A stretch of DNA of 32,000 nt from Candidatus Saganbacteria bacterium. GTDB taxonomy: Bacteria > Margulisbacteria > WOR-1 > JAKLHX01. Positions 1,244-32,000 of the stretch are shown here, piece by piece. Position numbers and translations under genes: made by a program. Positions within the stretch are counted from its first letter, which is position 1. Every line of letters starts with the position of its first letter. The stretch lies in the NCBI GenBank assembly GCA_026387835.1, contig JAPLKZ010000010.1, positions 114,325-146,324 on the forward strand, read 5' to 3'. The notes beneath the pieces are model-generated. The model saw only the letters and a program-made list of their open reading frames with translations, was not told the origin of the DNA and ran no database searches.

Positions 1244-1301
1244 CCACCCTCTCCCTCTCGCCCTGAGCCTGCCGAAGGGCTGGGAGAGGGAAGGGTGAGG
1301 G
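1244..1301 (-). promoter_or_regulatory. GC-rich imperfect stem-loop between the platform-protein stop and the pilin RBS (REP-like palindrome)
   Basis: CCCTCTCCC (1247-1255) is perfectly complementary to GGGAGAGGG (1282-1290). An inner GCCC (1260-1263) pairs with GGGC (1277-1280), with a 13-nt loop tgagcctgccgaa. CACCCT/AGGGTG gives an alternative register. No U-tract follows on the transcribed strand, so it is not a canonical terminator. Confidence 0.5.
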
Positions 1302-3053: not shown

Positions 3054-3064
3054 ATGCTTTGGGA

Positions 3065-4650: not shown

Positions 4651-5784
4651 CTAATTTTCTACAGGGAATAATATCCTGACATGCGTCACGTTCTTCAGCG
4701 CGGTGTTCGCCCAGTCGGGAAGCTGCTTGCGCAGATCAGGATCGATCCAGAGCCGCGGCATCGGCTGCCAGCCGATATCATTGATCTTGACTTCTACGAG
4801 AAATCTTTTTAAAAGGTCCTCGCTCCATGTCTTTGAATCCAGGTCCATCGGCTTATATCTGGGCTGAAGATAGAGTGAAAATAACGGTGGCTGGCCTTCA
4901 AGGGTCTTTCCAAATATCGATGTCGGCCCTATAACCATCCACTGCGTCATGATCCTTGCGTTCAACATCTCCGGGCTCATCCCGTGCCTTGATGGGATTA
5001 TCTGGAAACCTCCGACCCTTCCCATAGGAGATGTTGAAACATCTATCACGCCCGTATGGTTTGCCCTAATGCGGCCCACATCGGCAAATTGGGTCCCCTG
5101 AAAACGCCCGATGCCCTGTACCGGCTTTAAGACTTCTCCTATCACGCTTTCCTCGTCTCCGCCGTAGTCTATACGTATCTTCCCTCCGAATTTATTCTCA
5201 AATATGATCGCTCTCGGGTAAGAAACAGGCCTTATGACAGAAATAATTATCGTTTGGCCTATATTAGGCACATAACCTTCCGTGATCTCCTTTATTTCTT
5301 TAAACTCATCTATGTAGCTGACGGGATTGCCTACTATCGGCGCAAAATCCCCGCCGAATATGGAGGTGCCTGCCGGAATATTTGTATATATCGAAGAATC
5401 CGGGCTCAGGAAAGAATTATAATATTCCGGAGGGTTCAGCATATCGGCCGGTATTATCGAAAATACCACGCCTTTGCCCTCTTCGGTGTTGGTCCCCGTC
5501 CTTATATGTATAGCATTGACCGCCGTTGCCGCGACAGCTCCGACACTAGCCCATTTGCTTGCAGTGTAACCGTCCCTGTTGACCTTCTGGCACGGATACA
5601 GGACTTTTCCGACTGCTTCCCAGCTGTTGCCTCCGTCCCTGCTCACTGCAACAATGCCGTTCTGCCTGTTCTCTACGGATATCCTGTAGATCTCCGCGGA
5701 CTTCACTGTCTTCTCAGCGGCGAACGAGATATGATACAGGATCAAGATCATTAAAAACGACAGCAATAATATTTTTTTCTTCAT
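4651..5784 (-). CDS. Secreted hypothetical protein with one Asp-box (BNR) motif
   Basis: It has a signal peptide MKKKILLLSFLMILILYHISFAAEK. VSRDGGNSWEAVG fits the Asp-box SxDxGxxW. I recognise no other family. The ATG lies 1 nt after the permease stop (TAAcATG). Confidence 0.6.
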   Translation of the reverse strand: MKKKILLLSFLMILILYHISFAAEKTVKSAEIYRISVENRQNGIVAVSRDGGNSWEAVGKVLYPCQKVNRDGYTASKWASVGAVAATAVNAIHIRTGTNTEEGKGVVFSIIPADMLNPPEYYNSFLSPDSSIYTNIPAGTSIFGGDFAPIVGNPVSYIDEFKEIKEITEGYVPNIGQTIIISVIRPVSYPRAIIFENKFGGKIRIDYGGDEESVIGEVLKPVQGIGRFQGTQFADVGRIRANHTGVIDVSTSPMGRVGGFQIIPSRHGMSPEMLNARIMTQWMVIGPTSIFGKTLEGQPPLFSLYLQPRYKPMDLDSKTWSEDLLKRFLVEVKINDIGWQPMPRLWIDPDLRKQLPDWANTALKNVTHVRILFPVEN

Positions 5785-14988: not shown

Positions 14989-16182
14989 TTATCTCCCCAT
15001 GCCTTTCATCTGAAGACCGAAAAGGTTGATGAATCCTTCCGCATCCTTCTGATTATAAACTTCGTCTTTTTCAAAAGTAGCAAGTGAGCGGCTGTAAAGC
15101 GACTTTTTTGCTTTTCTCCCGGCCACAGTACAGTTGCCTTTAAATAATTTTATTCGTACGGAACCCGTAACATTTTTCTGCGTGCTGTCGATAAAAGCAT
15201 CAAGAGCTTTTCGCAGCGGCGAGAACCACTGCCCGTTATAAACGATCTCCGCGTATTTTTTGGATATCAGTTCTTTGTAATGCGCGGTCTCACGGTCGAT
15301 CGTTATCGATTCAAGCGCCTTATGAGCCGCATAAAGAATAGTTCCTCCCGGAGTTTCGTAAACGCCCCTTGATTTTATCCCGACAAGCCTGTTCTCTACT
15401 ATGTCGATCCTGCCTATTCCGTTCTTGCCGCCGATGTTGTTCAAGCTTTGTATCAGAGCGACAGCAGTTATTTTCTTTCCGTTAAGGCTGACCGGTACTC
15501 CTTTTTCAAAACCTATTTCTATATAAGTTGCTTTACTTGGCGCTTTTTCAGGTGATACCGTTAGGATGAACATGTCATCCTTCGGTTCTTTCCACGGGTC
15601 TTCAAGGATGCCGCCCTCGTAACTGATGTGCCAGAGGTTCCTGTCCATTGAATACGGTTTTGCTTTTGTCGTGGTAACAGGAATATTGTTTTCCTTGGCA
15701 TAATCGATCTCATCCTGCCTTGACTTTAAATCCCACTCTCTCCACGGAGCGATTATTTTCAGTTCCGGAGCAAGCGCTTTGAATGTCAGCTCGAACCTGA
15801 CCTGGTCGTTGCCTTTTCCCGTGGCGCCGTGGGCCACTGCATCGGCTTTTTCTTTTATAGCTATCTCCACTTGTTTTTTCGCGATAAGCGGCCGCGCGAT
15901 GGAAGTGCCCATAAGATAATCGGCTTCATATACCGCTCCGGACTTCAGCATCGGAAAAAGAAAATCTTTCGCGAACTCTTCCTTCAGGTCCTCGATATAG
16001 ATCTTCGACGCGCCTGTCTTCAGAGCTTTTTCCTTGAGACCTTTCAGCTCTTCCGCCTGCCCCACGTCCGCCGCAAAAGCGATGACCTCGCATCCGTAAT
16101 TATCTTTAAGCCACTTGATCATTATCGAGGTATCAAGGCCTCCGCTGTAAGCCAGAACTATCTTGTTCACTTTTTTCTTCAT
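14989..16182 (-). CDS. argG: Argininosuccinate synthase
   Basis: [13 protein letters not shown] (PP-loop), [15 protein letters not shown] and [14 protein letters not shown]. The ATG overlaps the argF stop (ATGA). Confidence 0.95.
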
Positions 16183-17069
16183 TTATTTTCTCCAATCAGT
16201 TTTACTAATACAGCTTTCTGCACGTGCAGCCTGTTCTCGGCCTGGTCGAACACTATGGAGTTACTTCCGTCCATCACATCATCAGTTATCTCCATTCCCC
16301 TGTGCGCGGGCAGGCAGTGCATCACAAGCACATCCTTTTTGGCATTTTTTAAAAGAGCTTTATTGACCTGATATTTGGCAAAATCTTTCGTTCGTTTTGT
16401 TGTTTCTTTTTCCTGTCCCATAGACGCCCACACATCGGTATAAATGACATCCGCATCTTTGACCGCTTTGACAGGGTCTTTTTCGATATCCACACCCTGC
16501 ATCTCATAACCTTTTGGACAGCATAAAATAAAATCCATATCGACCTTTTTACAAAGTAAAGCAAGTGATCTAGCAACATTGTTCCCGTCACCGATAAAGA
16601 CCATCTTCAGTCCTTTGACATCGCCTTTCTTTTCCATGACAGTAAAGATATCCGCCAGCGCCTGGCACGGGTGCTCGGCATCGGAAAGCGCGTTTATTAC
16701 GGGAACGGAAGCATATCGCGATAATTCTTCGACATTCTTATGTTCGAACGTCCTCAAAGCTATCAGGTCAACATACCTTGAAAGCGTGCGGGCCACGTCT
16801 GCATAGGACTCTCTCTTGCCCACCTGTACCATTCCGGCTGAAAGCGAGACAGCGTGGCCTCCGAGCTGGTACATGCCTACCTCGAACGATACACGTGTCC
16901 TGTTCGAAGGTTTCTCAAAGATCATTGCTATCGTGCGCTCTTCGAGCAGTTTCTTGTTCGGATATTCTTTTAACTCGCCGGTCAATTTATATATATCAAT
17001 AATATCTTGAAAAGATAAATCATTAATTGAAACGAGATGCTTGCACCGAGCCTTGTCGGGATTGTTCAT
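16179..17069 (-). CDS. argF: Ornithine carbamoyltransferase
   Basis: [10 protein letters not shown]..., [14 protein letters not shown] (S-x-R-T-R carbamoyl-phosphate motif), and [11 protein letters not shown] (HCLP motif). The track start TTG 17108 coincides with a -35 hexamer. I use ATG 17069 ([14 protein letters not shown]), which has TATAAT 9 nt upstream. Confidence 0.9.
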
Positions 17070-17078
17070 AATTATATT

Positions 17079-17108
17079 ATTATAAGTTTTATTACTTGCG
17101 TTTGTCAA
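17079..17108 (-). promoter_or_regulatory. Consensus sigma70 promoter TTGACA-N18-TATAAT, 9 nt upstream of the argF ATG (leaderless-type)
   Basis: On the minus strand, TTGACA (17108-17103), an 18-nt spacer, TATAAT (17084-17079), aatataatt, then ATG (17069). There is no SD. Confidence 0.65.
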
Positions 17109-17152: not shown

Positions 17153-17692
17153 ATGGTCACACCTTTAGGCCAAAAACAGCCTTTTTCGGTATCAGCCGCG
17201 CCGAAAAAAACCCAGACCGTCGAAACCGACTGGAAAGGCAGGGTAAACAAGGCCGCAAAATCAGCTGTCTCAAACAACCCAAAGCTCGATCCTAAAGCGA
17301 TACTTGCCGAGATCAAAAACTTGAACGGGCTTATCAGGCAGGAATACAATGCCGCCGGCAAACTGGTCACTGTTGAAGACAGCCGGCTAAATCAAGGGTC
17401 TCCTTCATATATTATTTTTCCGCCCGGAATGAAGGCGATCAGCGCCATGAAATATAACGAGGTCATGCTTATGACAAGAGCGGCGCACGTCCTCGGCGCC
17501 TTATCTTCCGCCGCCCCGGGAAAAACAGAAACTGTCACCCGGTCCAAACTCAGGCAGGCTGTCGCGGTTATCCAGGAACAGCATCAGATCAAGGTCGATG
17601 ATTATGAAAAAGGCAACAAAGTGGGTTTTAACACAATTAACGCCTTCATAGAAGAACTTGAGGCCCTGATTAAGGCCGGAAGTAAACCCTGA
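17153..17692 (+). CDS. Hypothetical protein (179 aa), the only plus-strand gene, with no family recognised
   Basis: A clean ORF with AAGGAG 9 nt upstream of the ATG. It is non-repetitive and has a soluble-looking composition, with no signal peptide or TM segment. It is convergent with the giant ORF. Confidence 0.6.
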   Translation: MVTPLGQKQPFSVSAAPKKTQTVETDWKGRVNKAAKSAVSNNPKLDPKAILAEIKNLNGLIRQEYNAAGKLVTVEDSRLNQGSPSYIIFPPGMKAISAMKYNEVMLMTRAAHVLGALSSAAPGKTETVTRSKLRQAVAVIQEQHQIKVDDYEKGNKVGFNTINAFIEELEALIKAGSKP

Positions 17693-17710: not shown

Positions 17711-17809
17711 TTATCCTATTATCTTTTGAATAAATTCATTTATGGAAACGAGGTGCTTGCACTGAGCTTTGTCGAGGTGCTTGCACTGAGCTTTGTCGAA
17801 GTGTTTCAT
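17711..17809 (-). pseudogene. Relic copy of the argF 5' end (first ~30 codons) with its own relic leaderless promoter
   Basis: It translates to [32 protein letters not shown], versus Arg[25 protein letters not shown]. The DNA aligns from the ATG for about 75 nt. Upstream on the minus strand are TTGATT (17845-17840), N17, TGcTACATT (17825-17817), N7, then ATG (17809). Confidence 0.5.
17749..17803. repeat. Perfect 24-nt tandem duplication (2.3 copies) of CGAGGTGCTTGCACTGAGCTTTGT
   Basis: Unit 1 (17749-17772) and unit 2 (17773-17796) are identical. A partial third unit cgaagtg covers 17797-17803. The period equals 8 codons (DKAQCKHL x2 in the relic ORF). Confidence 0.95.
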
Positions 17810-17899: not shown

Positions 17900-20800
17900 T
17901 CAATATGGTTCTATGTCACCAGTGTATATATCGGCTGGCTGAAGCAACCCGTAATTTCTGGAGATCTCGGCCATTGCTTCCCTGCATTTACCGGCTTTCG
18001 ACACTTCTTTGTTGATCTCATTTATTCTCGCAAACTCCGAGTAATCCGCTTTTGACCTGCAAGCTTTCACAAGAATTTTTACGATCTCATCCCGTATAGC
18101 ACCGCCATTTCCTATTGCTTTGGCTATGGCGTCCGATGTCGCCTTATTTTCCAATATTATTCTTATACATTCACTTGTTGCGTTCCTTATCCTCGCGTTT
18201 TCAGCGGCGGTACCGATCCTTGAATTATGTATCCTTGAATAAAAGCCTAAAGCTATGTCATATTTGCCGCTACTAAATGCTGATTGTGCCTTTTCCCTGC
18301 AAGAAATGTATAACTGAATCTCATTCCCCAGCATTTCTTTTTTGGACGATTCGCTTTGCGCATATTCTATTTTTCTTCCAAGTTCGGCTATATTTGCATA
18401 AGCGCTCCATCTGGTATTTGACTTCGGCAACGCAGGCTGTTCCGGCTCAGCAGGAAGATAGATTTTCGATCCGAACCTGCTTTCAAGGAACCACCTGAAA
18501 CCCGAGACCAGGTTTGGATTCTGCTGAAGCCAATATATCGTATATTCACCATTACCAAGTCTGAGCATCGACTGGGAAGGGACTTCTTCCGGACATTTTA
18601 TATTGCACTTTATTTTCCCGGTAACTTTATCAATTTCATTTCCAAAGACATCATCTATATCCTTATCGCTGATGGAATCGGATATGCCCTGTCTATTACT
18701 TACATAGAATTCGGACAGTCTCTTTAAAAACTTTTCTCCCGTTGGCTGAAGCGAGACACGGCCGTTCTGTCCATTCTTTGTCTTCAAGAACTCATTAAAT
18801 TCTTTTATGAATATTGCAGCCTCTTCTTTATTCATTCCCTTTATAAAATTATCCAAGGTAAATAATTTTTCGATCTGGAAATCGGCCGTCTTATCGATCA
18901 GCACCCTGTTTTTGGCATATGCCCCTACGGATTTCCCGATGTTATATGCTACATACAATTTGAACAGAGCCAGCTTGTCATTGACCTCGGCAATATTTAC
19001 TCCCCTGATTGAGCAATACCCCTCGAACGCTTTTCTTTCGTTTTCTTTAAGCATGCCAAGATCAAAGACTGTTCCCACTATCGAATCCTGGATCTCTGCT
19101 GTCTTTTTCTGATATTCGCTCAGGTGAACTTTTCTGATATATTCCCTGAAAAGCGACGGACATTGTTCTTGTATATCGCGCTTCAGCGGGGTCGCGGGCA
19201 TTCCCTGGATCAGCATGTTATTCTGGCTCCTCGCAAACGCCGCATCGTCAGCTTTAAGCATAATACTTCTGGTCATTCTCTCAACCGAGGGTAGGTTGAC
19301 ATAAGCACGTCTTGCGATCTGTTCAAGGACGAGGTTTTTTATCTTTTCCTTTGCATCTTCCAGTTTTATTTCGTGTCTGTCTATCCTGCCAAAAAGAAAT
19401 GCTATTTCCTGAAATGCCTTTTTCTGATTGACGAATTGTTCCAGTGTTATTGAAGGATTATCTTTCCTTTGCTTTTCGAGCTGAGCGGATACTTTTTCCA
19501 TAAAAGTTTTACTGTCCAAATAACCAAGTTCATAATATTTCAAAATATTTTCAGTATTTTCACAAATTGACTTAATCGTCTTCATATAGCCTATCACTTC
19601 TGCTCCCTCCACCCATGAAAGAGCTGTGGTTGAAAACAGCCATTCTCTTACCGAGTCTTTTCCTTTTCTTATATAGGCGTTCTCCTGATCTCTGTAAGCC
19701 TTGCGCATAGGAACGACCCATTCTTCATATAATTTATTCCTTTCATCAATATCAGCCGACGAGTTTCCGTTCATTGCATCGCTGATGCGTGGGGCTCCCT
19801 CGCATATGACTGTTCCTATAAGAGCACCCAAGCCGGCTGCTCTGGAACCGACCGCTACCGAAGCTTTGCCTAAGTTTAAAGCCCAAAGAGAGGCTTTTGC
19901 GCCTATTTGAACATAGAGTTTATTAGCTAAAACATGAGATGTCCCGTCAAGAACATCTCCGGTCCTCGCTGCTGCCGGCGATGTCATTGCACTGTAAAGC
20001 CACGGAGCTTTCTTCATCGTCCAGTTATACCCTACTCCGAATATTTCCATTCCTGCCATTGCTACTACATTACCACCAAATTCCGCAAGCGGCCGCGGCA
20101 ACTTCTTGCTGAGCGCCCAAGTGGCAATCTTTTGTGTCAACATAAAGGAACCCAGATTACCTGCGCCCTGTACGGTCACGACTAATTTTCGATCCATGCT
20201 TGCAGATTTTATATCCCTTTGAGTATTCAGAAAGATTGCAAATGCTGTTCCCTGCCCGCCAGATAATCCGAGTAAAGCCTGCCCTACCCCTCTCTCAAGA
20301 CCGAACTTGGCCCATCCGATAGTGCCCTGGATAGTTTCGTCCTCTGTCTTTGCCCACATCGTAGCGCCTTCTCCGCGAAGACCGTAGAGCAGAAAATTCT
20401 TGCCTGCGCTGACAATTATGGAAGCAAGAAATCCTGAAGCGGCGTCATGAGCGGTATTCGCTCCAACCGATGTAAGCTTCTGGCCGAAATTCCCTCCCGG
20501 TGCACCGAGGCACATCCACTGCCAGGCCCCGACCATCTCTCTGACATTATATGTCCCGTCCGAGGCTGCCGGCATTGAAAACTCCGGCACTTTAAGGCCT
20601 TTTGCTTTGTATTTTTCCGCAAGAGACTGATATACGCTTGCAAGGTATTTGTCAACAGCCTCGCTGCCGAGCAGGTTAATATCTTCCCTCACTGCCATTT
20701 TGAAGATACTGTCCATTGACATCGGAGATGATATATCTTCGATTACACTGTTCGCTTTCTTTTTTGCCTGCTCTGTTTTTTTCTGGAAATCCGGGTCCTT

Positions 20801-23800
20801 CGGATCCAGTTTTGCTATCTCTCCTTCAAATATCTGCGCGGAAACAGAAGATGCCAGGTCGCCGAATGTCTGGCTGAACCTTGAAAGACACGTTATCTGG
20901 AATATCGTGCTGAACACCTGTGTTCTGGCGACTTTTTCGCTTACGCCTATTTTTTTCAGTTCGGCCGCAGCCTGACTTATAACTCTTTCAAGTTCATTTG
21001 CCGCGCTCTTGTATTCCTTTGATGACGACAGGCATTTCGTCAGGCAGGCAAGGGTCCTGTTGTTCAAAGAGACTGTTATCTGTGCTCTCCCGTCTTTGCT
21101 GTTGATGACAATTGCTGTTTCGGTGAAAGGCTTCAAAAAGTCTGATTTTTGCACTTTATTATATTCAGTATCGGCAGCCCTTGCTTGTTGTAATTGAGCG
21201 TCTATTTCTGCCTCAAGCTTTTTCACGGCTTCAAGATAAGCATCTGTCTCGGGAGAAGCGCTCATCAGCTCGGCTATCGTCCTCTTGCTGATCTTTACGG
21301 AATAAGTTTTCCCGCCTTTTTCAACCGCGATATTCTCATAAAGGATGTTCTCGCGGTTTCCGGAAATTATCACAAGCGGAATATCGCTTGAACCCTGCAC
21401 CTGGAGCTCGCTGATGCTCTGCGAGAGCCTGGTCCTTATGGCCTCCGGATCGAAGCCCTTTCCTTTATTTGCTTCAACGGCTGCGCTGATGATCTCGTCC
21501 AGCGCTTTCTGGCCATCGATCAGCGCCCTGGCATCCGAGACGGATATCTCCATCTTTTCGCCGTCGGCTTCTATCTCGATGATATCTCCGCTCTTGGTCA
21601 GCTTTATTGTCCCTGCGTCTGCATCTTCTGCCGTTTTTATCTCTATAACTGTAGACTTGTCTGTCAGGAACGGTTCAAGCCGACCTGAGCTTTGGGCCAG
21701 ATGCAGGGAGCCGGCAAGCAGATCATTTCCTGTCAGGACGTGTCTGACGACCCTGACATATTCCCTTAACTTTGCAGCCTGTTCCCCTGATACACTGTAA
21801 TCTATCCTTTCGGCGCTTTCATAATATATGTCGCTTCCCTGCGGAGTTCTTTCGATCTCCTCAAGCAGTTGCACAGGCGTCTTTGCTTTTTCATGGGAAA
21901 TGACTATACCGCGTGGACGTACGCTCGAGTGACGGCCAAGGTAATCCTCGGCTATCTGTGCGGCTTCATGAGGATCCATTCCCTGAATTACCATAAATCT
22001 AAAGTGTATCTCGGTAAGTTCATGGGTGAAGGCATCGGAGATCCTGAGGCTGCTGTTAATTGTCAGAGTGCCATTCGCGTCAAGTTTGACAGCTGATTCC
22101 CTTACGAATACTGTATCCCCAGCAAATGCCGCGTCACCGGATATGTCCGCATCAGTAAATACCTTGTCAGGAACAACTACTACTTTATTGATCGTCTTGA
22201 GAGCGCGTGGGTTTATCATCCCCTGGCCCATTTCAAAGAATAGCTTGGACAACGCGGGAATTTCTTTTCCGGAAGAAGCCGCTCTGATCAGGACATCGAT
22301 CTGGCTGGGAGCTAAATTACCTGATTGAGCTCCTGCAACTACTGGTGCTGCGGTCGGTGCCGGCACAGGAGAGGCTGCACTGGTGTCTGCCGTTGCAGTA
22401 ACGCTTGGCGCTTTCCACGCGCCTACAAAGCTTTTCGCTCCTACTGATTTGCTTATGGCATACAGCATCCTTTTTGCTGCGTTTATCCTGTTGTCCCTGC
22501 CTATGGCTGTCGCTTCCTGCTGGAGCCGCATTTCTATATTTTCGTCTTCCTTTATAAGCCCCGTGCGGAACCTTTCTACCAGTCCGAGCTGTTCATTACC
22601 AAGCTGCCTGTTAGCGGCACTGAAGACCTCTACTATGATATTTTCCCAGCTGTTCTCAATGTTAAAGCGCATGCCCTGCTGTTCCACTTCGAAACGCAGG
22701 CTTCCTGACGGCTTATGAGAACTCGAATATTTTGCCTTGCCGGAAGTCCCGGCCAGAAAACCGTCCACCATTGTCTGCAAGCGTCCTTTTATTTCTGTTA
22801 TTGACAGATTTTCTTTTGTTCCGGGATCAAGCGCTCTTGTCACTTCCTCTTCTTTTATCCCCAAAAGCCATGCAAGGTCTTTGCTCAGTTTTGCCAGAGC
22901 ATCTCTATTGAGAGGTTTGTTCCCGTCAGCGTGCCTTTCTATCACCGCTTCCACGCCTGCCATAATGAACTTTTTCGCACATTCTATTATGTTGAGACTT
23001 CTGTTCGGCACAACACCGACACCGTCCCGCGTAACGAACAATTCATCCGAGATCCCGCGATAGTGATCTTCAATTCCCTGAAAATATTTCCTGATTATCA
23101 GTCCTTCTTCAGCCTTTGCACAGGCCTGTTTTGCCTGTTCTGTCCTGAGATCATTCTGTATAATCCTCCTTGCTGTAGCCATATCTCTGCGTGAGACTGC
23201 AACCTTTAGTTCGTCGTACATATTTGGTTCATTGGAACTTGCGGAGCTTGGCATCACACTTAAAGTTGCTTTGATGTTCGGATCATCAATAGAATATATC
23301 GGGACCACTTCTACGCTGTCTATGAACCTCCCGCCGCGCTCTCTCAACTGAATGAATGCCCACTCGTTACCGGCCGGCGAAATAGGGATCACCATGATCC
23401 CTCTTCTGACAGCCTCGGAACCCGGAGCACCTTTCACCCTGATATCGTCCGCGCGGGCGAAAGAGCCTATCGTTATTCCCGGGGTCCCTGCATGAGCGAT
23501 CGCAGCGTTCCTTGCGTTCTTTCCGGACCTGATCTCATGGTCGCACAGTTCCACTCTTCCCTTTATCGCGGCTTTCTGCTGAGGAGACAGCCCGGCTTCT
23601 ATCGCATCAGTTATCTTTCTTCCTCTTTCGGAATCTCCGGCTGTTTGTATCAATATCGGTCTTGGGGCATGCCCCTTGCTTATTGCATAATCAATTTCTG
23701 CCTGTATCCTGGTAACGATTTCATTTATCTGAGTATCTTGATCGATAACTATATTCGGATCATGCCGGACGATCAGGCTCGGGATCAGCGGCAGATCCCT

Positions 23801-26800
23801 GCCGCTATTTTGCAGTGCCATCCCTCTCATCTTATCTGCAATATCACCCAGCAGACTGTAATAACCTGTTTCATTCCCGACTGTTTCACCGCCTTCAGCA
23901 TTTCTGGTCACAACCCTGCCGTCACGCATCTGGATACAGACCCTTACAGGCACGCATTCCTGATCAGCCGTGCCTCCCGGCAGTTTAAAGAACAGTGTCT
24001 CAAGCCTCACATCACCTGTTGTTGCAGCCCCGCTCGTTCTTGCATCAAATATAGCCTGCAAAGCTCTCCTGCATCCGTCTGCATCCTGTCCCGCGTAATC
24101 CCATTCGGAAACGTTCCTGCTCAGCTCGACAACTTCAATACCAAGCCTTTCAAAGAAAGCCCTGACCTCCGGAACCGTGAGGGTGCCTGACATGAATACC
24201 TTCAACCCCCGGAAGGAAAGCAAGAATTGCTGAGGTGTCTGCGACTGTATTGCCGTTAGTTCCTGCCTGATGGGGAATCCGCACATTGCCTCAAGCGCCT
24301 GATGGAGGCCTTCGTTAAACCTGTTGTCAACCATTATCTTCGAAACATTTTCATCGACAACATAAACTTGTCTTTTAACACGGTCCACATATACTTTTTT
24401 GTCATCGATAGTTTTTTGGGCTTTCATGCAATTTATGACCATATCCACTGTGCCCGGTTTGTTTGCCAATTCGCTGAATTGTTTATTGGCCATTAAAAGT
24501 GCTTCTATATTTGGCCTGTCGCTTTCTCCAATTCCTCTTGACATAACATATTTTGCTGCTTTGGCTGCTTTTCTCCATTGTTTTGCATTGGCTACTTCAC
24601 TTCCGTCCCCGCCTCCGGAAAGGATGAGAGGCGTCTTGCTCATGTCTATCATAAAATATTCGCCTTCATCCGCTGTATAGCTGCGCTGAAAATCGACAAA
24701 TGCGGCTTCCGCGGGCGGCATCGTCCTGCTTATCAGGTCAACCACCATGAAATCGTACAAAGAGCCGTAAACGACCGGCGATGAAAGTTCCGTCCTCAGC
24801 CTCGCCTGTGAAGATTTCGAATCCACCACGCCCACCTTTGGCACGCCCATCACCTCATAACATTCCCTGAAACACTCGGCATCGCGCTCGGCAAAGATAT
24901 GGTCTGTCGTGAAAGAATAACTCATACCCTTGTCCGCCCGCCACCTGTTTATGTTCACGCCAAAGCATATAGCCGATTTTCCTCCGCCGCATTCTTTATT
25001 GAACGAATACCCGAGATAACCTCTCGCGACCGCTTCCATCTGTGGGAATGTAAAGCGCAGGTGGTTATATTTGTATTCCACTTTCTTGGTGCCGGGGATC
25101 GTTCCGGGGACTTCATCCGCGCTTTTACCGAACAAATAGACCGAGATCCTGGTCAAAGCCAGTAGTTTTGTCCTCGCTTCAAAACTACTAAAATCACCGT
25201 GAAATCCTTCCATTTGTTCATTGAACAGTTTTTGATATCCTTCTTTTGCTCCTTTGATATTTCCGCTGTCGACCAATTCTCTTAATCTTTCTGTCTCAGC
25301 AGTGATCGTACGCTCATTGCATACTCTCATAGCATCTTCGACCATCTTTTGGACTGCTTGTTCCTGTGTCGTCACTCCGGCCGGCAAAACGAGTTCGACA
25401 TGTCTTCCGATATCAATTCCCAGGTCTTGAGCTATTTCGCTTAAGTTTTGGCCGCTCACAAATTTTATGTGGTCCGCTAAATCAACGATTGCTCCTCTTA
25501 AAGTCGCAACTTGCTCAGGTGCTGATATTACCTTTCTGTCAATTATCAATCTTTCCCGCCCTATCTTTATCCTTAATAGTTTTGCGCCCGAATTAGTTAT
25601 ATATGGGCTCATCGCAATCTCATTACCATCAACGATCTCTATCCTCCCTATCGGCAAAGTTTCGATAGACCTGTCAATACGAATAGTCTGTGTAGGTCCG
25701 CTTTCAAATATTTCCTCGACCGCGTCTCTGAATATCTCGCATCTCTTATCCCCTTCTATCACCGAGATCGGCTCATCCTGCCTTTTCACAAATCTGACAG
25801 CTCTTGCGGTCCGGGTGCTGTCCGGAAGGCTTTCGAATACAAATGTGCCGCTTCCGTTAAGATGTTCAGGGAATTTTGCGCGGTAATCAGGCTGATAAGA
25901 ACCGCGGATCGCCCTTCTCGTTACTGCAGACGGGCTTACACCGAGATCTGCGGCTGTCTGTCTTTTTTGATCGCCGACAAAAATAAAATCTTGAGGGTGT
26001 TCGGCTGCTTTTACCGCTCTTCCTACCCTGTCAGCTAAACAGCTGATGAAATATAAAGAGACGACCCTGTATGAAAATCTTCCTGTTTCGTACGCAGTTC
26101 TGCCCCCTGCCATTACCGCCGTCCTTAGGGCAGGGTGATCATTCAAATACTTCCTGACAGGGCCTATTTTGGTGGGGTCTCCGGAATAAGAATTCTTTAC
26201 CCATTCTGCGCCTCTGACTAAACAATCTTCAATCGTGATATGTACCCAGTCAAGCCCCTTCCCTATTTTCCCGTCCCTTCCTACACGGTCCATAGTCCAT
26301 TCGGCGCCGCTGCCTAAAACTCTGAATACTGTTCTTGTACCAAGAGGCAGAGTCTTATGGGACATATACGGCATACCGCGCGCTCTTCTAGTGACATAAT
26401 CCGCCCCCCGCAGGGCAGAATAACTTGCCGCCATTGTCTGGAGCATCCAGAACACTGATTTTCCTATTAATTTGTCCCAGTCGTCTTCAGTTTTCCAGAG
26501 ATCGTTAATTTTTGAAAGTCCCAAGCGCGGGTCTATTCCGTATCTTACAAATGCTTTAGTCATGCTTGCAAGCTGGTAAAGCAGGCCGTCTTCATATCCC
26601 GTCCCTTCGGTCCCGAAGAAAATATTGTCTGCCGCTGACCAGTTGCCTGTTGTTTCGCCTTTGATTATTGCTTCGGACCACGATTTCATCTTCCCGCCGA
26701 CATTTCCGATCTGCCAGCCGATCGCAGCCGGCATCGTCTGCCACGGCAGAGCCTCTTCAACCATGTTGAACAAAAATGGAACGCCGCTGAATGTCTTTAG

Positions 26801-29800
26801 CGGTGTCGCCCATGTGCCGTCGAATACAGGGTTCATCCTGTGCTCCGGAGTGCATTCCCCGTACATATTTAATTCGACCATCTGAGGTATTTTCTGGGTA
26901 CCGTTTATTCCGAAAGTCTCCCTCAGCCCGCGCTGGAGGTAATGCTGGACGTTGGCGAGGTCAAAGCTTGCTTCCGGAACTCCGGACGTCCTCTCGAACA
27001 GGTCGAGCACCGTGAAAGCGTCAAGCAGGGCGCCGGAAAAAGCTTTTTCAGCTTCGCTCTTTGCGGCCTCCGGATTAGAGATATCCGAGGCATCTTCCGC
27101 TTTGAAACGGTCTACTGGACTGATCCATTCCCATTTTTGCGCCTTATCATCAAACCTTAAATTATAAAGTCTCTTGCTTGCGGCGGACGGCCACATCGAT
27201 CTGTTATTATTTAATCTGTCAAGAACAAGGTTCAGGTTAGTTACTGTTCGTCCGATATCCTGCACGTCCACCTGGTTGAACCTTGCTATGCCTTTTTGAT
27301 CACCTTCGAACGGCCTGAAATCAGATATCATCTGCTTTTTTTGGCTTTCGGAAAACCTGTAGTTAAAGAATTTTACATAAAACCCTATTGATGTCTTTGG
27401 ATTAGCCTGCGTCATCGCGCCCATCGTTGCAAATATCCTTTGCCAGACGATATTCTTCGCGGACATCAGATTTTCTCCGGATACTGGCGCATTTGCCTTA
27501 AATTTTGTTGTGTCGGTATCCGCGGCATTTGCGCCCATTGATGTCAGCGCTATAGGCAAGCCGCCTGTCATTATTAAAGACGATGATATTAATGTGAGCC
27601 AGTTGAGGTCCGACGAAGAGACGGGTATTGCGAACATCATCCTTATCAGGAGCATCTTTGCTATCGTCGTGTCGCGGTTTTCTACCGGAAGCACCGTCAG
27701 AGTCGTCCAGCCGCCGTCCCTCTGGATCGTCTTTAAGATGAACTTTTCGATATCTTCAAACGTTTTCAGCCCCGTTGCTTCGGCAATATAATCCGAGATG
27801 GACTTTTCATATTTCGGCTTGCCCTGCTCGTCATAGACGACCATGTTTTGACCGAAAACATATTTCATTATATTTTCCGAGGTCTTTATCCTGCTGATGG
27901 CAGGGCTCAGCGACAGGAAGAAATTTTCATCGATCCTCGTATCCATCATCGGTGAAAGCTTCTTTGAAAGTTCTCTCCTCAGACTGCCGAGTTCCCTGTT
28001 AAGCGAAATTAATTCGGTATAATCATCCGGATATTCTTTTTTCCAGTCTTCCAGTTCCTTTTTCTTTGCACCTTTGGTTTTTTCGTTCAGGAACGAGTTA
28101 ATATTTGCCTCGATCGTTTTTATCTTCTGCATCGTAACGTCGATCTCACCCTGGAGCTCACCGATCTTTTTGACCGCGGCTGGCTGAAGAGAGGCTTTTA
28201 ACAGCATCACCTGCAGCCAGGCTTTTTCCCCGCTTATCCTCTGTCTCGGCACTGTCACCAGGGACCTAGTATCCTGGTTCCATACGCGCAGCATCACGCT
28301 TGCAGTCTTTGATAACCAGGAATCACCTCCCACCACTTCTCCCGGGATATCGGCGACAAGATCGACCTGGTCAAGCTGCCAGCATATCCTGTTCACTGTT
28401 TCCGCATATTTTCTGATGTTTTCAGGCAGGTCGTTCAGCCTTGTAGTCCTGAGGACTTCTCCGGATTCTTTCAGCCATTTTGCAAGCGCCATCAGTCCGT
28501 CTTTGTCTTCATCATTGTTTATCCCGCCCTGCACGGGGATAAAATAGCCTTCCATCTGGCCTCTTTTAATCACCGCGTCTGCATCGCTAAGCTCTTTAGG
28601 GCAAAGTTCCCTTGTGCCGACATAAAGATTTGCCAGCGCTTTTAAAGTTTTTAACTCCTTTAGAGTTGAACCGTTTAAAAGCATGATGTTTTCCGCTATC
28701 CTTTCGAATTTTTTCCGGTCGCTAGGATCTTTCAGAAATTGTGCCAGTTCGTCGAGGAATTGCTTCAGCTCGCCCTCGTCTTTTGGCGTGGCTTTTACAA
28801 GTTCTGTTTTCAATAATTCTGCCAGCCTCTTCCTTAATTTCCCGATATCATCTATATCCTGCAGGGTCAGGAACGTTTCCTGCCCGGGATTCACCAGACA
28901 TGTAAATAATTTGCCCAGAAGTTTATTTTCTTCGGCTGTCAGGCTTATCTCGTGTTTTTCTTTTACGACAAAAGAAAGAGAGGCTATAAAATCGTCAAAG
29001 TTGCTTACAGGCAGTGCCGATGATAAGTATATTCGGCCTTTCCTGTCGAGAAGGACGGCCAAGGCCGTGACGTCAGAAAAAGTCATGTAATTTTCTTTTG
29101 GTGATGAAATATTTCTGCATCCGGCGCCTATCATCATAGCCTTGGCAAGCGAGTAAGGCGCTTTCTGTCCGAAGACGTTTAGGTCTACTTTTTCGTTTTC
29201 ATTTGTCGGCTTTATTTTCGGTCTATCCGAGATCTCTTTCGGGGACGCTTCCTGGGCTTGGGTCGGTTTGTTTATTGTCGTGAACATTTTTCCGTCAAGT
29301 GTGACTGAACCTGCGCTCACATAGGTCTGCCTTGTCTTGGGATCGCCCTGGTCCATGAAATACACTCTGGCGGCGGCCCCTGCCAGTGATCCGGAGAATT
29401 TCTTTTTCAGTTCCTGCTGGTCAGGATCGAATTTTGTCTTTTCTTCTTCATTTTCGGTGATCCCGGAAGCCTTTATCCACGCGGCTGTCCTGTTCTCTTT
29501 TACGACAAGGCCGGCGGTAGCCAGAGCCCTGTTAATTTCCGAAATGCTGAAAGCTGCGAACTTCAGTGCTTCTCTTTTTTCCGGCTTCTCGTTTTTTTCG
29601 GCCTTCTCTGTAGCTTTAAAGAACTGCTGCGCAGCGATAAAGAAAGCCTCGCGTTCTTCGGCAGTCGCGTTATTCAGCCAGCCCAGAAAGGATGTTATCT
29701 TGTCTATTTCTTCTTTTGTCGGTTTGTATTTCAGAATCAGTGTGATCAGCTGCTTTTCCATGTCCGTAAATTTTGGTTTGGCTTCTTTTTGTCCGTAAAA

Positions 29801-32000
29801 AGTGCCTGTCAGGGGGGTAAGGATCCTGAGTATCTTTTCGCCCTTGTCCTTTTCGCCTTTCAGGGCGTTCTGCAGGCACAGCACATACGCCGCAGCCTGC
29901 TGATCGACAAGCGCGTCCCTGTATCTCGTCTGGTCTTTTGCGGTGGAAGACATCACCCTTCCGAATGATTCGTTGAGCAGCAGGTCTTCGGCCGTTATTT
30001 TTGTTGCTTTTGCCCCTTTTGACCTGAACGCGATCGTATTAAGCAGCATCACCAGGTTCTGGTCGGCTTTCCCCTTTTCATAGTTCTTGTATCCGTAGTG
30101 TTTTTCAAGGACATCCTGGATCGTTTCGATTTCTTTCAGCGTAGCAGGCACAAGCGAGTGTGTCCTGTCCCTTTTGAGCACGATGATATTTTCTATCCTG
30201 CCAGTCTCTGACGGGTCGTCAAGGTTCACGGGATAGTAGAATTCAAACCTGAAACCGTCAAGGATCGTCTTGGTGCCTGTGATAAAATCGCCCTCTTCGA
30301 GCTGCGGTATCTGTCCGAGCTGTCTTGGAGTGCTCAGTTTCTCCAGCCTTTGTCTTTCCTGATCCCATTTAGAATGGACCTCATCGATCGCTGATGTGAT
30401 CCTGTCAGAGTCCTTTTCACCGGGACAAAATACCTGATGGAATGTGTCAAGTGCCTGAAGCGTCGGTTTATCAAGCTTGTTCTCGTCCTGATTCACGTCA
30501 GAAGTGAATATCGCCTTGACCCTGAAATCTTTTTTCGCCGGATCGGGAAGCAGGCCCATGGGAGAAGATGCCAGCATCAGGCTGTCTTCCATGAAACCCA
30601 TCTGAGAAAGAGTCTTTTTCTTGTCCTCGCTGAAATGCGTACCCCTTGCGAAAGGAAGCCCCGGTCTGTCCTCCGGTGTCTTTTCTGGTTTTTCAGATTG
30701 TACATGTATATTCAACCTTCCTATGCCCGAAGCTGTCCAGCTGCCGCTGTCGTCTTCTTTGATCCCTAATTCTTCACTGTATTTTTGAAGGATCAGGGTC
30801 ACAGTCCTTTCGGCTTCTTCTTCTGAAGAACCCTTAGGGATAAGCAATGTTATGCTGAACGACCTGTCAGGACCGCTCTTTGTCCTTCTTGCTTCGGCAA
30901 GGGCCGTCTTAATGGATTTTAAAAATTCACCTTCCCTGACATGTGTATCTATTTCAGTCCCGAATGACGCCGACTGGTCTTTCCATGGCATGATATTGAG
31001 CTCTTTTTCGACCGCCGCCATCTCTTCTTCTGTCAGGCAGTCCATAACAGCCTGCACCTGGATGTTCCTGAACTGTTCCGCGAGCATTTTTATCCCGTCC
31101 TCGTTGAGCGGTATGCCGCCGAACGCCGTTATCTGGGCTTTTATCTGCTCCGCAGTTGAAGTTATTGTTATTTGTGAAGGATCAAGTATGAATTCATTTA
31201 CGGTAAGCCTGCTTCCTTCCCCTATTTTCTGGCTGAGAATATCCATTTTCAGCATCGAGAAATATCGTTTTCCTGCATTCGTCTTCAGGTATTTTTCGAT
31301 CAGCTCTTTTGTCCTGGGGCATTCTTCAGCCTTTTTCTGCTTTTCTCTGACATTGTTTAACCCGTCAAACAGCTTGCTTGAATACTCGCCGTATTTTTTC
31401 TGGTATTCCTCTATCCTGGCCTGGTTTTCGCTGACCCAGCTCCATTGTTCGACCGGGTTCCCGGCAAATAAAATAGATCTCAGGTTCGCGTCCCTTATTC
31501 TTTTCGAGTCCTGTTTCTTAGTCCCGGATATTTGTTCATCCGCGAATTTTTTCAGTCTTTCGGACGCATAATCACGGACAGCTTTCGTAACCGCCTCGGA
31601 GAAGGCATCCTTTGTCGCCACTTTTGCCTGGTCGGTGTTTATCTCGCCGAGCATCGTTAGCAGTTCATCGGCTCCCGGTATATCTTTTTCCTCGCCTTTA
31701 AATGTCGTCGCCCCGAGCTTTTTCATGATCTGGGCAAGCATCCATCTGGCACCTCTTGCCGCTGCATCTTCTTTTTTGACGGCCTCAAAGTCCCTTGATA
31801 CGATCAGCTGCGCAGCTTTGTTCTTTGCCGCTTCATCTGAAAATATTTCTTTCGGGGCTGTCTTGCAGATGTCGGCCAGCAGCGCTCTTTCCCCGGATAT
31901 CTCACTTGACCTCTGCAGGCCGGCTTTGTAGCTTTTTATTTCCGACAGGGCTTTTTTTATCGCCTGGGGAAGTTCCTGAGGTTTTACAGTATTCTGGGTT
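17900..32000 (-). CDS. Giant protein of unknown function, 5'-partial (at least 4,699 codons inside the window)
   Basis: The ORF track gives 4,613 aa from ATG 31741 to TGA 17900. I translated the same frame across 31742-31999 and found 86 sense codons with no stop: [86 protein letters not shown], then MLAQIMKK. The other two minus frames contain stops there. Confidence 0.85.
   Translation of the reverse strand, partial: [4699 protein letters not shown]
19790..20535 (-). other. Gly/Ala-rich hydrophobic block near the C-terminus of the giant protein (candidate membrane-inserting region)
   Basis: About 250 aa running from [16 protein letters not shown] to [17 protein letters not shown]. It contains [61 protein letters not shown] and [18 protein letters not shown]. 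These are several 18-22-aa hydrophobic stretches with small-xxx-small spacing, flanked by K/E-rich helical sequence. Confidence 0.5.
23282..25170 (-). other. SecA-like motor module (NBD1-PPXD-NBD2) embedded in the giant ORF, about aa 2190-2820 from Met-31741
   Basis: It is colinear with SecA as I recall it. [13 protein letters not shown]...[30 protein letters not shown] matches TGEGKTLTATL...[41 protein letters not shown] matches [67 protein letters not shown] matches [59 protein letters not shown] matches [38 protein letters not shown] matches [24 protein letters not shown]. Confidence 0.8.

Follow-up and report, generated by a model that had tools for sequence, protein, structure and literature searches.

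The minus strand of the window (the whole 32,000-nucleotide stretch of Candidatus Saganbacteria DNA analyzed here) carries, between positions 17900 and 31999, an uninterrupted run of 4,699 sense codons that closes with a TGA at 17902-17900 and contains no internal stop; its product ends in ...IYTGDIEPY. The mechanical ORF call opens at an ATG (17900-31741; 4,613 aa) and is identical to GenBank MCX5749535.1 (Candidatus Saganbacteria; our P0004), whose 4,613 residues start at the same Met-31741 (31739-31741, minus strand). GenBank lists it as a hypothetical protein, and the preliminary description of this DNA had likewise left its function open. We number residues from codon 31999-31997, which makes Met-31741 Met-87; adding 115 gives the numbering of the 4,814-aa product introduced below, and subtracting 86 gives that of MCX5749535.1. 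All features of the protein lie on the minus strand.

The giant gene and its locus

By codon-usage log-likelihood ratio, the 86 codons 5' of Met-31741 look coding: they score 28.5, where in-frame chunks of the gene score 20.8 +/- 5.5 and the other two frames of this stretch -36 and -28. Both of these minus frames contain several stops within 31400-32000, in line with the earlier remark that they are closed at the window edge. ATG, GTG, and TTG are all absent from the 86 codons, so the start is either Met-31741 or outside the window. A Logan contig agrees with the window at 100% identity across the 21,194 bases retrieved (4989-26182) and has the gene in its interior, ~7.1 kb of the contig lying upstream; on it Prodigal calls a 4,814-residue product. 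Only ~115 N-terminal codons therefore fall outside the window, the full gene call is 14.4 kb, and the ORF is indeed cut by the window edge, 14.1 kb being a minimum, as first proposed. On these grounds Met-31741 is probably internal to the gene, and the GenBank start codon probably lies ~200 codons too far downstream.

With 6.35% of off-frame codons in the gene being stops, a run of 4,699 open codons would arise by chance with a probability of ~1e-134, and one of 86 codons, as found upstream, with a probability of ~0.0035. Six independent assemblies from six sequencing runs are 100% identical to the window DNA over the parts that they cover, three of them spanning 17900-26182, which supports continuity of the gene. 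The nearest ArgG sequences (74-79% identity) all come from Margulisiibacteriota, Saganbacteria, or WOR-1; with the GenBank match, they place the DNA in Candidatus Saganbacteria (Margulisiibacteriota), where the preliminary description had assigned no taxonomy. This is almost certainly a real, single chromosomal gene and a member of a family of proteins with a SecA motor, described below. A phage or plasmid gene was considered and rejected, the context being chromosomal housekeeping.

The giant gene adjoins arginine-biosynthesis genes at four relatives' loci, one of which (L088) has the full argB-giant-argF order, as argC-argJ-argB-(278, 1317, 392 aa)-giant-162 aa-argF-argG-argH; the window points to the same arrangement. 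At another locus (L026) only ~2 kb separate argB from argF, and several related genomes have no giant ORF at the site. A gene of ~400-1,060 aa that matches no Pfam family lies immediately upstream of the giant in the seven relatives' loci inspected, and no dedicated secretion genes were found near the giant in these loci. Pairwise links between the upstream neighbors (L090_703 with L092_1062, and L093_594 with L094_436; each E ~1e-6) are weak but suggestive of a conserved partner family.

A SecA-type motor module

SecA normally drives proteins through the cell membrane as an ATP-powered motor. Of all Pfam families, SecA alone rises above noise in the giant protein and in three of its relatives; tiling of the giant under lax Pfam settings added nothing but sub-threshold noise such as Pirin_C, DUF6140, and KORA. 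No PADLOC family matched the giant at E<=0.01, and the single PHROGs match, to a family of unknown function, falls over the SecA region. A phmmer search against the PDB gave matches only to SecA and SecA2 (best 1nkt, 6.8e-15). We delimit a motor module at aa 2225-3110 (22670-25327), for which an AF2 model has a pLDDT of 77.9 and a pTM of 0.77. The top 36 Foldseek matches of this model in the PDB are all SecA (E down to 1.6e-26), the best by TM-score being substrate-engaged SecA-SecY (6itc); the alignment runs over ~900 columns of full-length SecA, without picking out the finger and wing individually.

The first nucleotide-binding domain (NBD1), with the inserted PPXD, occupies aa 2298-2629 (24113-25108) and is recognized by Pfam SecA_DEAD (35.2 bits; cutoff 24.6), Pfam SecA_PP_bind (28.8-32.9 bits; cutoff 23.5), and the PDB search. 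Its Walker A sequence GGGKS (aa 2338-2342; 24974-24988) aligns to GEGKT of SecA with the G and K invariant, and DEGE (aa 2444-2447; 24659-24670), the Walker B or DEAD-box equivalent, aligns to DEVD with the D and E invariant. Both Pfam and the PDB search place the PPXD core at aa 2499-2570 (24290-24505), with the motif NEGLHQALEA at its end. A beta-rich insertion between NBD1 and NBD2, seen in the AF2 secondary structure and as a gap in the SecA alignment, covers aa ~2658-2754 (23738-24028). NBD2, located with the family profile at aa ~2740-2905 (23285-23782), has SFARADD as motif V (R2849) and QLRERGGR as motif VI (Q2884, R2888, and R2891). The GK of Walker A, the DE of Walker B, and these R and Q residues of NBD2 are invariant in 61 sequences (10 giants and 51 SecAs).

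A helical, scaffold-like region follows at aa 2927-3088 (22736-23221), delimited by profile, AF2, and Foldseek. Built from aa 2625-3200, the family profile finds NBD2 and the scaffold of SecA (E=4.6e-23), with an alignment that covers residues 416-762 of E. coli SecA, and AF2 places after NBD2 a 46-residue helix and four more (segment 703-864) from an alignment rich in canonical SecAs; the dominance of canonical SecAs in that alignment itself favors a SecA-like fold for the scaffold region. From these comparisons and the model the motor appears to be complete rather than a fragment, with NBD1, the PPXD clamp, NBD2, and apparent scaffold helices. Since motif V reads ARADD instead of GRGTD, ATPase activity is plausible but unproven; with the catalytic residues retained, we consider it somewhat more likely than not that the motor is an active, polypeptide-handling ATPase.

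The module shares with canonical SecA and SecA2 the domain order NBD1-PPXD-NBD2-helical scaffold (the scaffold of the giant being apparent and partly AF2-based), as well as Walker A and B, the motif V arginine, motif VI (QLRxRxGR), and the PPXD stem NEGLHQALEA. Canonical SecA, however, is a stand-alone protein of 800-1,000 residues, whereas the module is internal (~2225-3110 of ~4,800), is only ~15-25% identical to it, and carries before NBD2 the extra beta-rich insertion that canonical SecA lacks. The NCBIfam SecA equivalogs score far below cutoff (PRK12904, 69.7 bits against 814; TIGR00963, 67.8 against 800), and no C-terminal zinc or SecB-binding tail was recognized in the module. Taken together, these differences mean that the giant is not the housekeeping SecA of the cell.

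A mosaic protein family

An exhaustive search of 1.84 billion representative proteins returned about ten relatives of 2,758-5,251 aa: six matches at E<1e-30 and further giants with a similarly placed motor. All relatives with a taxon label are from Saganbacteria or Margulisiibacteriota. Common to the family is a collinear core of ~1,800 residues (aa ~1250-3060), which gives matches to eight other full-length giants, and the PPXD clamp is kept throughout; the thirds at either end of the protein are peculiar to single lineages or have been shuffled among members. In the genome closest by housekeeping genes (L007; ArgG 79%), the giant ORF at the syntenic site detectably resembles the window protein only in a SecA_DEAD match, and its Walker A lies ~2,360 residues from the C terminus, as in the window protein. 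By these sequence comparisons the protein belongs to a rare, small, fast-evolving family; the family is unstudied, and any function assigned to it is inferred.

Scans of the N-terminal 500 aa against genome contigs and metagenome contigs, and of the motor region against viral contigs, gave no match. A word-indexed homology search with aa 2001-3200 returned only three canonical SecAs and did not recover the query protein itself, and the N-terminal 1,000 aa and the alignment of the HELTEIH module (below) gave no match there; the index evidently misses these giant proteins, so that absence from it means little.

The N-terminal region (aa 1-1250; 28250-31999) is lineage-specific and K/E/A-rich, with no relative or domain detected. 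It leads into the family-conserved pre-motor core (aa 1251-2224; 25328-28249), which is mostly helical, is defined by collinear phmmer matches to P0005-P0008, and contains the motifs DGGW..PGD..T.AK.LL and IGRIEIVDGN, with W, AK, P, and W invariant in its alignment (A1). A PDB profile search with this core gave no match, and AF2 on aa 1380-2200 with nine sequences reached a pLDDT of 47, too low for a fold search. Within the core, a Kyte-Doolittle scan located a conserved hydrophobic segment, WLTLISSSLIMTGGLPIALT (aa 1467-1486; 27542-27601), with a borderline 19-residue mean of 1.54 (family mean 1.33; above 1.2 in 6/9 members); it is a possible membrane-associating helix.

Beyond the motor, the Pro/Ala-rich linker reported earlier does exist, as ATADTSAASPVPAPTAAPVVAGAQS (aa 3202-3226), and the translation places it at 22322-22396 rather than 22326-22405. 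Overlapping its end is a module at aa 3217-3355 (21935-22351) that is common to P0009 and P0040 (phmmer E 1e-16 to 1e-20; jackhmmer) and whose alignment (A4) has an invariant H-E-L-x-E-x-H (HELTEIH, 22004-22024) and a second invariant HE downstream, consistent with a possible metal-binding or hydrolase fold. A resemblance by eye to DUF4157-like or zincin peptidases was rejected, the motif being H-E-x-x-E-x-H and not HExxH, and the module having no Pfam or PDB-profile match. A Gly/Ala-rich, weakly hydrophobic module follows at aa ~3660-4066 (19802-21022), most strongly hydrophobic at aa 4048-4066; it is common to P0006 and a second large protein of locus L092, had no match in a PDB profile search, and is possibly membrane-interacting. 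The HELTEIH and glycine-rich modules are each common to a different subset of the family. The C-terminal region (aa 4100-4699; 17903-19702) is again lineage-specific, with no relative detected and no Pfam match above noise.

Much of the giant protein is K/E/A-rich and helical in composition, which fits a cytoplasmic protein. Across the family the hydrophobic segments, of which most members have 0-2, reach only borderline 19-residue Kyte-Doolittle means (1.3-1.9), and by this heuristic a single segment of the window protein exceeds 1.6. No signal-peptide-like hydrophobic stretch was found at the N termini of eight complete relatives or of their upstream neighbors, and no secreted-protein domain or sorting signal was found in the giant protein. 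Self-BLASTP gave no off-diagonal match at E<=10, tile-against-tile phmmer gave a best E of only about 0.16, and Tandem Repeats Finder detected within the gene only trivial two-copy DNA repeats of 13-17 nt. A motif scan for LPXTG, GGxGxD, HExxH, and CxxC was negative throughout the giant. Only size is thus shared with the classical giant adhesins (RTX, Ig-like, cadherin-repeat, or LPXTG-anchored), and we agree with the preliminary description in rejecting this class, the giant having no tandem repeats and none of these anchoring or RTX motifs, and its relatives no signal peptide.

Related systems and possible roles

The likeness to giant ORFs of uncultivated lineages such as Omnitrophota, suggested in the preliminary description, finds a basis in an embedded, divergent SecA domain common to both. 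Giants of Omnitrophota and Actinobacteria carry divergent SecA_DEAD and PP_bind domains, and the authors propose export of the giant itself; such proteins are reported without scaffold and wing domains and are often near type II secretion genes, and Margulisbacteria are noted for many very large genes (West-Roberts et al. 2023, preprint, 10.1101/2023.11.21.568195). Like the window protein, these giants are very long, largely unannotatable, and fast-diverging, have embedded SecA_DEAD and SecA_PP_bind, and belong to uncultivated bacteria; in both cases a canonical SecA is expected elsewhere in the genome. They reach 10-150 thousand residues (10.1101/2023.11.21.568195; also 10.64898/2026.06.07.730766), whereas the window protein has 4.8 thousand, with at most one or two borderline hydrophobic segments, no other Pfam domain, an apparent scaffold region, and arginine-biosynthesis neighbors. 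The numerous transmembrane helices or signal peptide of the Omnitrophota type are not seen (by the Kyte-Doolittle heuristic, and with N termini taken from the relatives), nor are the traits of the Archaeovorin or Dockerin type (glycosyl hydrolase or transferase, peptidase C39, dockerin, NUDIX; at least 10,000 aa). Nothing larger than 5,251 aa appears among the best 150 matches of the exhaustive search, which thus does not demonstrate specific kinship with the Omnitrophota giants; we rate the Saganbacteria protein as a variant of the giants with SecA domains that have been described in Omnitrophota.

We tentatively favor a motor that translocates polypeptides at the membrane and is fused, in cis, to a variable protein of interaction or conflict. 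The embedded motor would hydrolyze ATP and act on polypeptide rather than nucleic acid, a substrate that we infer from the SecA-specific PPXD clamp kept throughout the family. It would dock at the cytoplasmic face of the membrane, either via SecYEG or through weakly hydrophobic parts of the giant protein itself (aa 1467-1486; glycine-rich module, aa ~3660-4066), and an interaction or conflict function would be carried out by the variable arms. A membrane or export role in cis, taken separately, is doubtful. One form of it, a signal-peptide-independent autotransport in which the protein's own SecA motor threads or inserts, in cis, the variable C-terminal half or the upstream Pfam-less proteins, we consider improbable; if it were true, export by a cis-acting SecA would have an origin separate from that of the Omnitrophota giants, and a hypervariable cassette lodged in the arginine-biosynthesis cluster would encode it.

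Some uncultivated bacteria with small genomes devote ~1% of their DNA to a single huge gene that defies annotation, and this family offers a tractable way into the question of why they do so: its members, at 3-5 thousand residues, are far smaller than the Omnitrophota giants, have one identifiable engine with all SecA catalytic residues kept and a conserved core that can be mapped, and occupy a defined chromosomal site at which alleles are swapped between close relatives. Should the motor work in cis, on the polypeptide that contains it, proteins would have a new route through or into a membrane; should it work in the cytoplasm, the SecA clamp would have a new use; the module at aa 2225-3110 can be expressed and tested directly, whichever reading holds.

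A serious rival, if itself rather unlikely, is an intracellular conflict or defense machine, in which a SecA/SF2-type ATPase serves as the cytoplasmic motor or switch of a large, fast-diversifying sensor-effector and nothing is exported, a logic likened to that of giant helicase-containing anti-phage systems. Conserved housekeeping genes flank the gene, whose island is variable: from one close genome to another it is present or absent, or one allele replaces another. The termini of the protein are mosaic, and signal peptides are absent and convincing transmembrane helices few, all as such a machine would have it. Several relatives moreover adjoin toxin-antitoxin or Abi-type genes (NTP_transf_2/HEPN, AbiEii, AAA_14-DUF4143, and PDDEXK_3), with 23S_rRNA_IVP genes also among their neighbors. 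These neighbors fit an intracellular conflict system as well as they fit an envelope protein; toxin-antitoxin and Abi genes are, however, common in such genomes, so that the association may be incidental, and none adjoins the giant in the window. The lack of any PADLOC match also argues against a defense role, which would leave unexplained the retention of the PPXD clamp and scaffold, features specific in SecA to polypeptide translocation.

Delivery of the protein as an effector or toxin, in which the variable C-terminal part (glycine-rich module included) enters the membrane of a target cell while the SecA-like domain serves for loading or acts inside the target, is quite unlikely. It would account for the fast evolution, for the lineage-specific, variable C-terminal region, and for the recurrence of the Gly/Ala-rich, weakly hydrophobic module in other large proteins. 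SecA-like helicase-related domains are, in addition, listed among the effector domains of Amoebophilus, as modules of large multidomain proteins (Zhang et al. 2012, PMC3482391); compared by description, these have a SecA-like ATPase module in a conflict or interaction setting as the giant does, but Amoebophilus is an endosymbiont with eukaryote-directed domains, unlike the Saganbacteria case. Against delivery, Pfam recognizes neither a toxin domain nor a domain for trafficking (RHS, HINT, or PAAR), no T6SS, eCIS, or T1SS genes lie nearby in the window or the relatives' loci, and the window has no same-strand immunity-like gene downstream, where a 179-aa ORF lies on the opposite strand. Nor are Saganbacteria known to be host-associated. 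With polymorphic toxins the giant shares only a variable C terminus, having neither their trafficking domain, RHS or filamentous repeats, and toxin cassette nor a downstream immunity gene.

Very unlikely, in our view, is a structural or housekeeping role in the cytoplasm, for instance as a scaffold akin to the cytoskeleton or as a chaperone/unfoldase, with the SecA-derived ATPase serving neither conflict nor export: the largely helical, K/E/A-rich composition (including the AF2 secondary structure) and the housekeeping neighbors would suit it, but such machines are conserved, whereas the syntenic ORF of the nearest genome cannot be aligned, and the distribution is patchy, several related genomes having no giant ORF at the site. 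An artefact (wrongly assembled sequence, several genes run together, or a pseudogene in decay whose frame is still open) has next to no probability: although the sequence is metagenome-assembled and one relative (L094) is split into 2,758 + 518 aa, the identity of the six independent assemblies, the minute chance of so long an open frame, the coding-like codon usage throughout, and the collinear homology to eight other full-length giants all speak for an intact gene.

Extent of the giant gene

Translation of the window places the giant gene on the minus strand, with 4,699 sense codons (31999-17903) followed by TGA at 17902-17900, zero internal stops in the reading frame and a C-terminal end of ...IYTGDIEPY. 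Close to the window edge, stop codons interrupt the remaining two minus frames, in agreement with the preliminary description of an ORF of at least 4,699 codons that is still open there. The off-frame stop rate within the gene is 6.35% per codon, and the chance of so long an open run is therefore about 1e-134. The mechanical ORF list starts the giant at ATG 31741, yielding 4,613 aa, and an exhaustive protein search returned this 4,613-aa version from GenBank (MCX5749535.1, annotated for a Candidatus Saganbacteria bacterium as "hypothetical protein NTZ10_04770", on a 363,715-bp contig), which also begins at Met-31741 (window 31739-31741). The 86 codons between this methionine and the window edge contain no ATG, GTG, or TTG, and their codon-usage log-likelihood ratio is 28.5, vs. 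20.8 ± 5.5 for in-frame chunks of the giant gene and about −30 for wrong frames. They are very probably translated, and their coding-like usage supports the earlier proposal that they belong to the gene.

A protein look-up with the neighboring ArgG retrieved 14 contigs from the Logan assemblies. We compared six of these with the window and found 100% DNA identity over the parts covered, and three of them extend across the final 8.3 kb of the giant gene; continuity, which the preliminary description had singled out for checking, is thus supported over the parts that they cover. The clone is present in samples ERR15302179, ERR15302182, ERR15302191, ERR15302206, ERR15302223, and SRR20698651. On the longest contig, ERR15302191_120336 (38,164 bp), the giant gene is internal, with about 7.1 kb of contig upstream, and is called at 4,814 aa. 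Only about 115 codons are therefore absent from the window. Codon statistics and this Prodigal call favor the longer form, which begins 201 codons upstream of Met-31741, and the GenBank annotation probably places the start about 200 codons too far into the gene. Metagenome-assembled genomes (MAGs) of Margulisiibacteriota, Saganbacteria, or WOR-1 supply all of the closest ArgG sequences, at 74-79% identity, which agrees with the Saganbacteria assignment.

Self-BLASTP, tile-against-tile phmmer, and Tandem Repeats Finder found no internal repeats in the giant, and regular expressions found no LPXTG, GGxGxD, HExxH, or CxxC. A repeat adhesin is rejected on the lack of internal repeats and of LPXTG and GGxGxD, both already noted in the preliminary description. 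The Pro/Ala-rich linker reported at 22326-22405 is present, with coordinates corrected to 22322-22396 (minus strand); in every material respect the first observation was borne out.

A SecA-type motor within a variable family

SecA is the sole kind of known domain detectable by sequence in the giant. At aa 2364-2629 (counted from the codon at 31999-31997), two Pfam models exceed their gathering thresholds, SecA_DEAD with 35.2 bits and SecA_PP_bind with 28.8-32.9 bits; the NCBIfam SecA models also match, with scores far short of the equivalog cutoffs. A PDB sequence search returns only SecA and SecA2 (best E 6.8e-15), in alignments that pair GGGKS with the SecA Walker A, DEGE...TPLILSG with DEVD...TPLIISG, and NEGLHQALEA with NEGMHQAIEA. 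Single-sequence searches give no further match past the first nucleotide-binding domain (NBD1) and the preprotein cross-linking domain (PPXD); a ten-member family profile of aa 2625-3200 extends the match (E = 4.6e-23) into NBD2 and the helical scaffold of SecA, over E. coli SecA residues 416-762. When giants and canonical SecAs are aligned together (61 sequences), G-K of Walker A, D-E of Walker B, R2849 (motif V), and Q2884, R2888, and R2891 (motif VI) do not vary. In a Foldseek search of the PDB, the top 36 matches to the AlphaFold2 model of aa 2225-3110 (pLDDT 77.9, pTM 0.77) are all SecA (E to 1.6e-26, about 900 aligned columns), with the best TM-score to 6itc, a substrate-engaged SecA-SecY; the model also predicts a beta-rich insertion between NBD1 and NBD2 (aa ~2658-2754). 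Judged by sequence, the motor is a SecA homologue at the domain level, with NBD1, PPXD, and NBD2 each recognized; a helical scaffold is likely, in a model whose input alignment consisted mostly of canonical SecAs. The giant holds an apparently complete SecA-type motor whose catalytic residues are all conserved.

No fold is assignable over two thirds of the giant. The pre-motor core (aa ~1251-2224) is family-conserved and mostly helical, includes a conserved, only moderately hydrophobic segment (aa 1467-1486), and has no recognizable fold (AlphaFold2 pLDDT 47, empty PDB profile search). Right after the Pro/Ala linker, aa 3217-3355 form a module, common to two relatives (P0009 and P0040), whose H-E-L-x-E-x-H motif is invariant and which matches nothing known in Pfam, the PDB, or a word-indexed homology search. 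This last search never returned the giant itself or any giant relative, though exact-sequence look-up finds them in the same collection, so its negatives for very long proteins do not amount to absence. A glycine/alanine-rich, weakly hydrophobic module (aa ~3660-4066), without a match in the PDB profile search, is common to the relative P0006 and to a second large protein beside it. The N-terminal (aa 1-1250) and C-terminal (aa 4100-4699) regions have no detectable relative. The second large protein near P0006 (L092:1-4839; called at 1,806 aa, 1,613 aa visible) is encoded on the opposite strand and shares the glycine-rich module with aa ~3660-4035 of the window's giant (E = 1e-13), so this module moves between large proteins.

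With aa 2200-3399 as query, an exhaustive phmmer search of 1.84 billion representative proteins gave 667 matches at E ≤ 1e-3, 20 at 1e-10, and 6 at 1e-30. The strong matches besides the giant itself are 2,758-5,251 aa long and have the motor ~1,300-2,000 residues from the N terminus, the remainder being ordinary SecAs, and all taxon-labeled family members are Candidatus Saganbacteria. None of the best 150 of the 667 matches exceeds 5,251 aa, so a specific tie to the Omnitrophota giants of 10-150 thousand residues is not demonstrated. Four relatives (P0005-P0008) are collinear with the giant over aa ~1250-3060 at 22-37% identity, and each of its other modules is common to a different subset of the family, a distribution that indicates mosaic evolution. 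The family consists of a conserved core with hypervariable arms.

The closest available genome by housekeeping genes, a Margulisiibacteriota MAG (L007, JBAZKW010000002.1; ArgG 79%, ArgF 68%, ArgH 63%, LemA 69%), has at the identical site, upstream of argF, a giant ORF (L007:2-8146) whose length is 2,715 aa or more. It has no BLAST or phmmer similarity to the window's giant; SecA_DEAD is present, Walker A lies ~2,360 residues from the C terminus as in the window's giant, and the C terminus is similar to those of P0040 and P0009. The giant of a more distant genome (L088, ArgG 73%) is 29% identical to the window's in the core. With the nearest giant unalignable and a more distant one alignable, the locus has therefore undergone allele replacement or extreme divergence. 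In a further related genome (L094:10001-19809) the giant is divided into two genes (2,758 and 518 aa, with a 25-nt overlap), the 518-aa product being homologous to the C-terminal part of the L007 and P0040 giants; the split reflects a frameshift or assembly error or, alternatively, true fission of the gene.

The gene order in L088 is argC-argJ-argB, three Pfam-less genes (278, 1317, and 392 aa), the giant, a 162-aa gene, and argF-argG-argH-ndk-TPM-LemA-pepA; argCJB also lies upstream of the giant in L087, and argF downstream of it in L094. By synteny with L088, argC-argJ-argB and then one to three Pfam-less genes would be expected upstream of the window's giant. In L026, only about 2 kb separate argJ-argB from argF, with no giant between, and several further relatives have no giant ORF at the arginine-cluster site. 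The cassette, present or absent between arg genes, is therefore a variable island inside the arginine cluster. Directly upstream of the giant, on the same strand, all seven relatives' loci inspected have a Pfam-less gene of ~400-1,060 aa, and weak pairwise similarity connects only a few of these neighbors.

Readings of function and comparison with known systems

Beyond "SecA-type ATPase," the role of the giant is one that we infer. The PPXD clamp, and probably the scaffold too, is kept across the family; these are the SecA parts that grip and push polypeptide, which suggests that the substrate would most likely be a polypeptide rather than nucleic acid. Fast, mosaic, presence/absence evolution is a signature of interaction or conflict proteins, and the giants may have such a role. 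We tentatively prefer a motor that would act at the inner face of the membrane, inserting or exporting part of its own polypeptide, or co-encoded neighbors, without a classical signal peptide. The same idea is advanced for Omnitrophota giants by West-Roberts et al. (10.1101/2023.11.21.568195). A hydrophobicity heuristic found no signal-peptide-like N terminus in the giant relatives or their upstream neighbors, and no secretion-system genes adjoin the giant in the relatives' loci inspected. The lack of signal peptides, strong transmembrane (TM) helices, secreted-type domains, and secretion genes counts against export, and so keeps two other readings alive: an intracellular conflict or defense ATPase, which we consider conceivable if rather doubtful, and a delivered effector or toxin, which is improbable. 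A housekeeping scaffold is quite unlikely, since housekeeping machines do not evolve in the rapid, mosaic manner seen here, and an artefact is hardly credible.

The giant differs from housekeeping SecA, in that equivalog scores are not reached and the motor is not stand-alone. It would work like the SecA-bearing giants of Omnitrophota and Actinobacteria, but the likeness is superficial: those proteins have many TM helices, carbohydrate-active, peptidase, or dockerin domains, and at least 10 thousand residues, all of which the window's giant lacks. The Omnitrophota preprint (10.1101/2023.11.21.568195) describes giant genes near type II secretion (T2SS) genes. A T2SS protein F/PilC-like gene in the window (1302-2288, minus strand) lies beside TatD and MetRS genes near the far end of the window, about 15.6 kb past the stop codon of the giant, and its link to the giant is doubtful given this distance and the housekeeping genes between. 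A recognizable polymorphic toxin and a known defense protein were likewise considered for the giant and rejected. Full-text searches found no literature on Saganbacteria together with SecA in the giant-protein sense. A giant protein with an embedded SecA domain is already known; new are the smaller size, the near absence of TM segments, the apparently complete motor, and the defined hypervariable chromosomal site. Such smaller giants appear so far only in Saganbacteria and Margulisiibacteriota.

Sequences flanking the giant gene

Downstream of the giant in the window lies a Pfam-less ORF of 179 aa on the opposite strand (17153-17692), followed by argF, argG, argH, ndk, a TPM-domain gene, LemA, pepA, and more housekeeping genes, among which two further Pfam-less ORFs are found downstream of pepA (7175-8947, 590 aa, and 4651-5784, 377 aa; minus strand). 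The 179-aa ORF is unrelated to the genes directly downstream of the giant, on its strand, in L088 (L088:20416-20904, 162 aa) and L090 (L090:18017-18466, 149 aa), whose products are 37% identical to each other. Defense-island-type genes recur in the flanks of five relatives' loci (L087, L090, L091, L092, and L094), several of which have toxin-antitoxin or Abi-type genes; the set comprises NTP_transf_2 with HEPN, AbiEii, three tandem AAA_14-DUF4143 genes, PDDEXK_3, and 23S_rRNA_IVP. No gene of this kind lies beside the giant in the window.

Just past the giant's stop, the intergenic region holds 2.3 tandem copies of a 24-nt unit (17749-17803; minus-strand reading GACAAAGCTCAGTGCAAGCACCTCG), and a degenerate third copy with 3 mismatches lies near the argF start (17033-17057). 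No copies are expected by chance, and the unit may represent a small dispersed repeat in this genome. A perfect sigma-70 consensus promoter (TTGACA, 18-nt spacer, TATAAT; 17079-17108, minus strand) overlaps the TTG given as the argF start in the mechanical ORF list (16179-17108), and argF is called at 296 aa on two Logan contigs, vs. 309 in that list. The argF start is probably near 17069, which would make the gene almost leaderless, with its own promoter apart from the giant gene.
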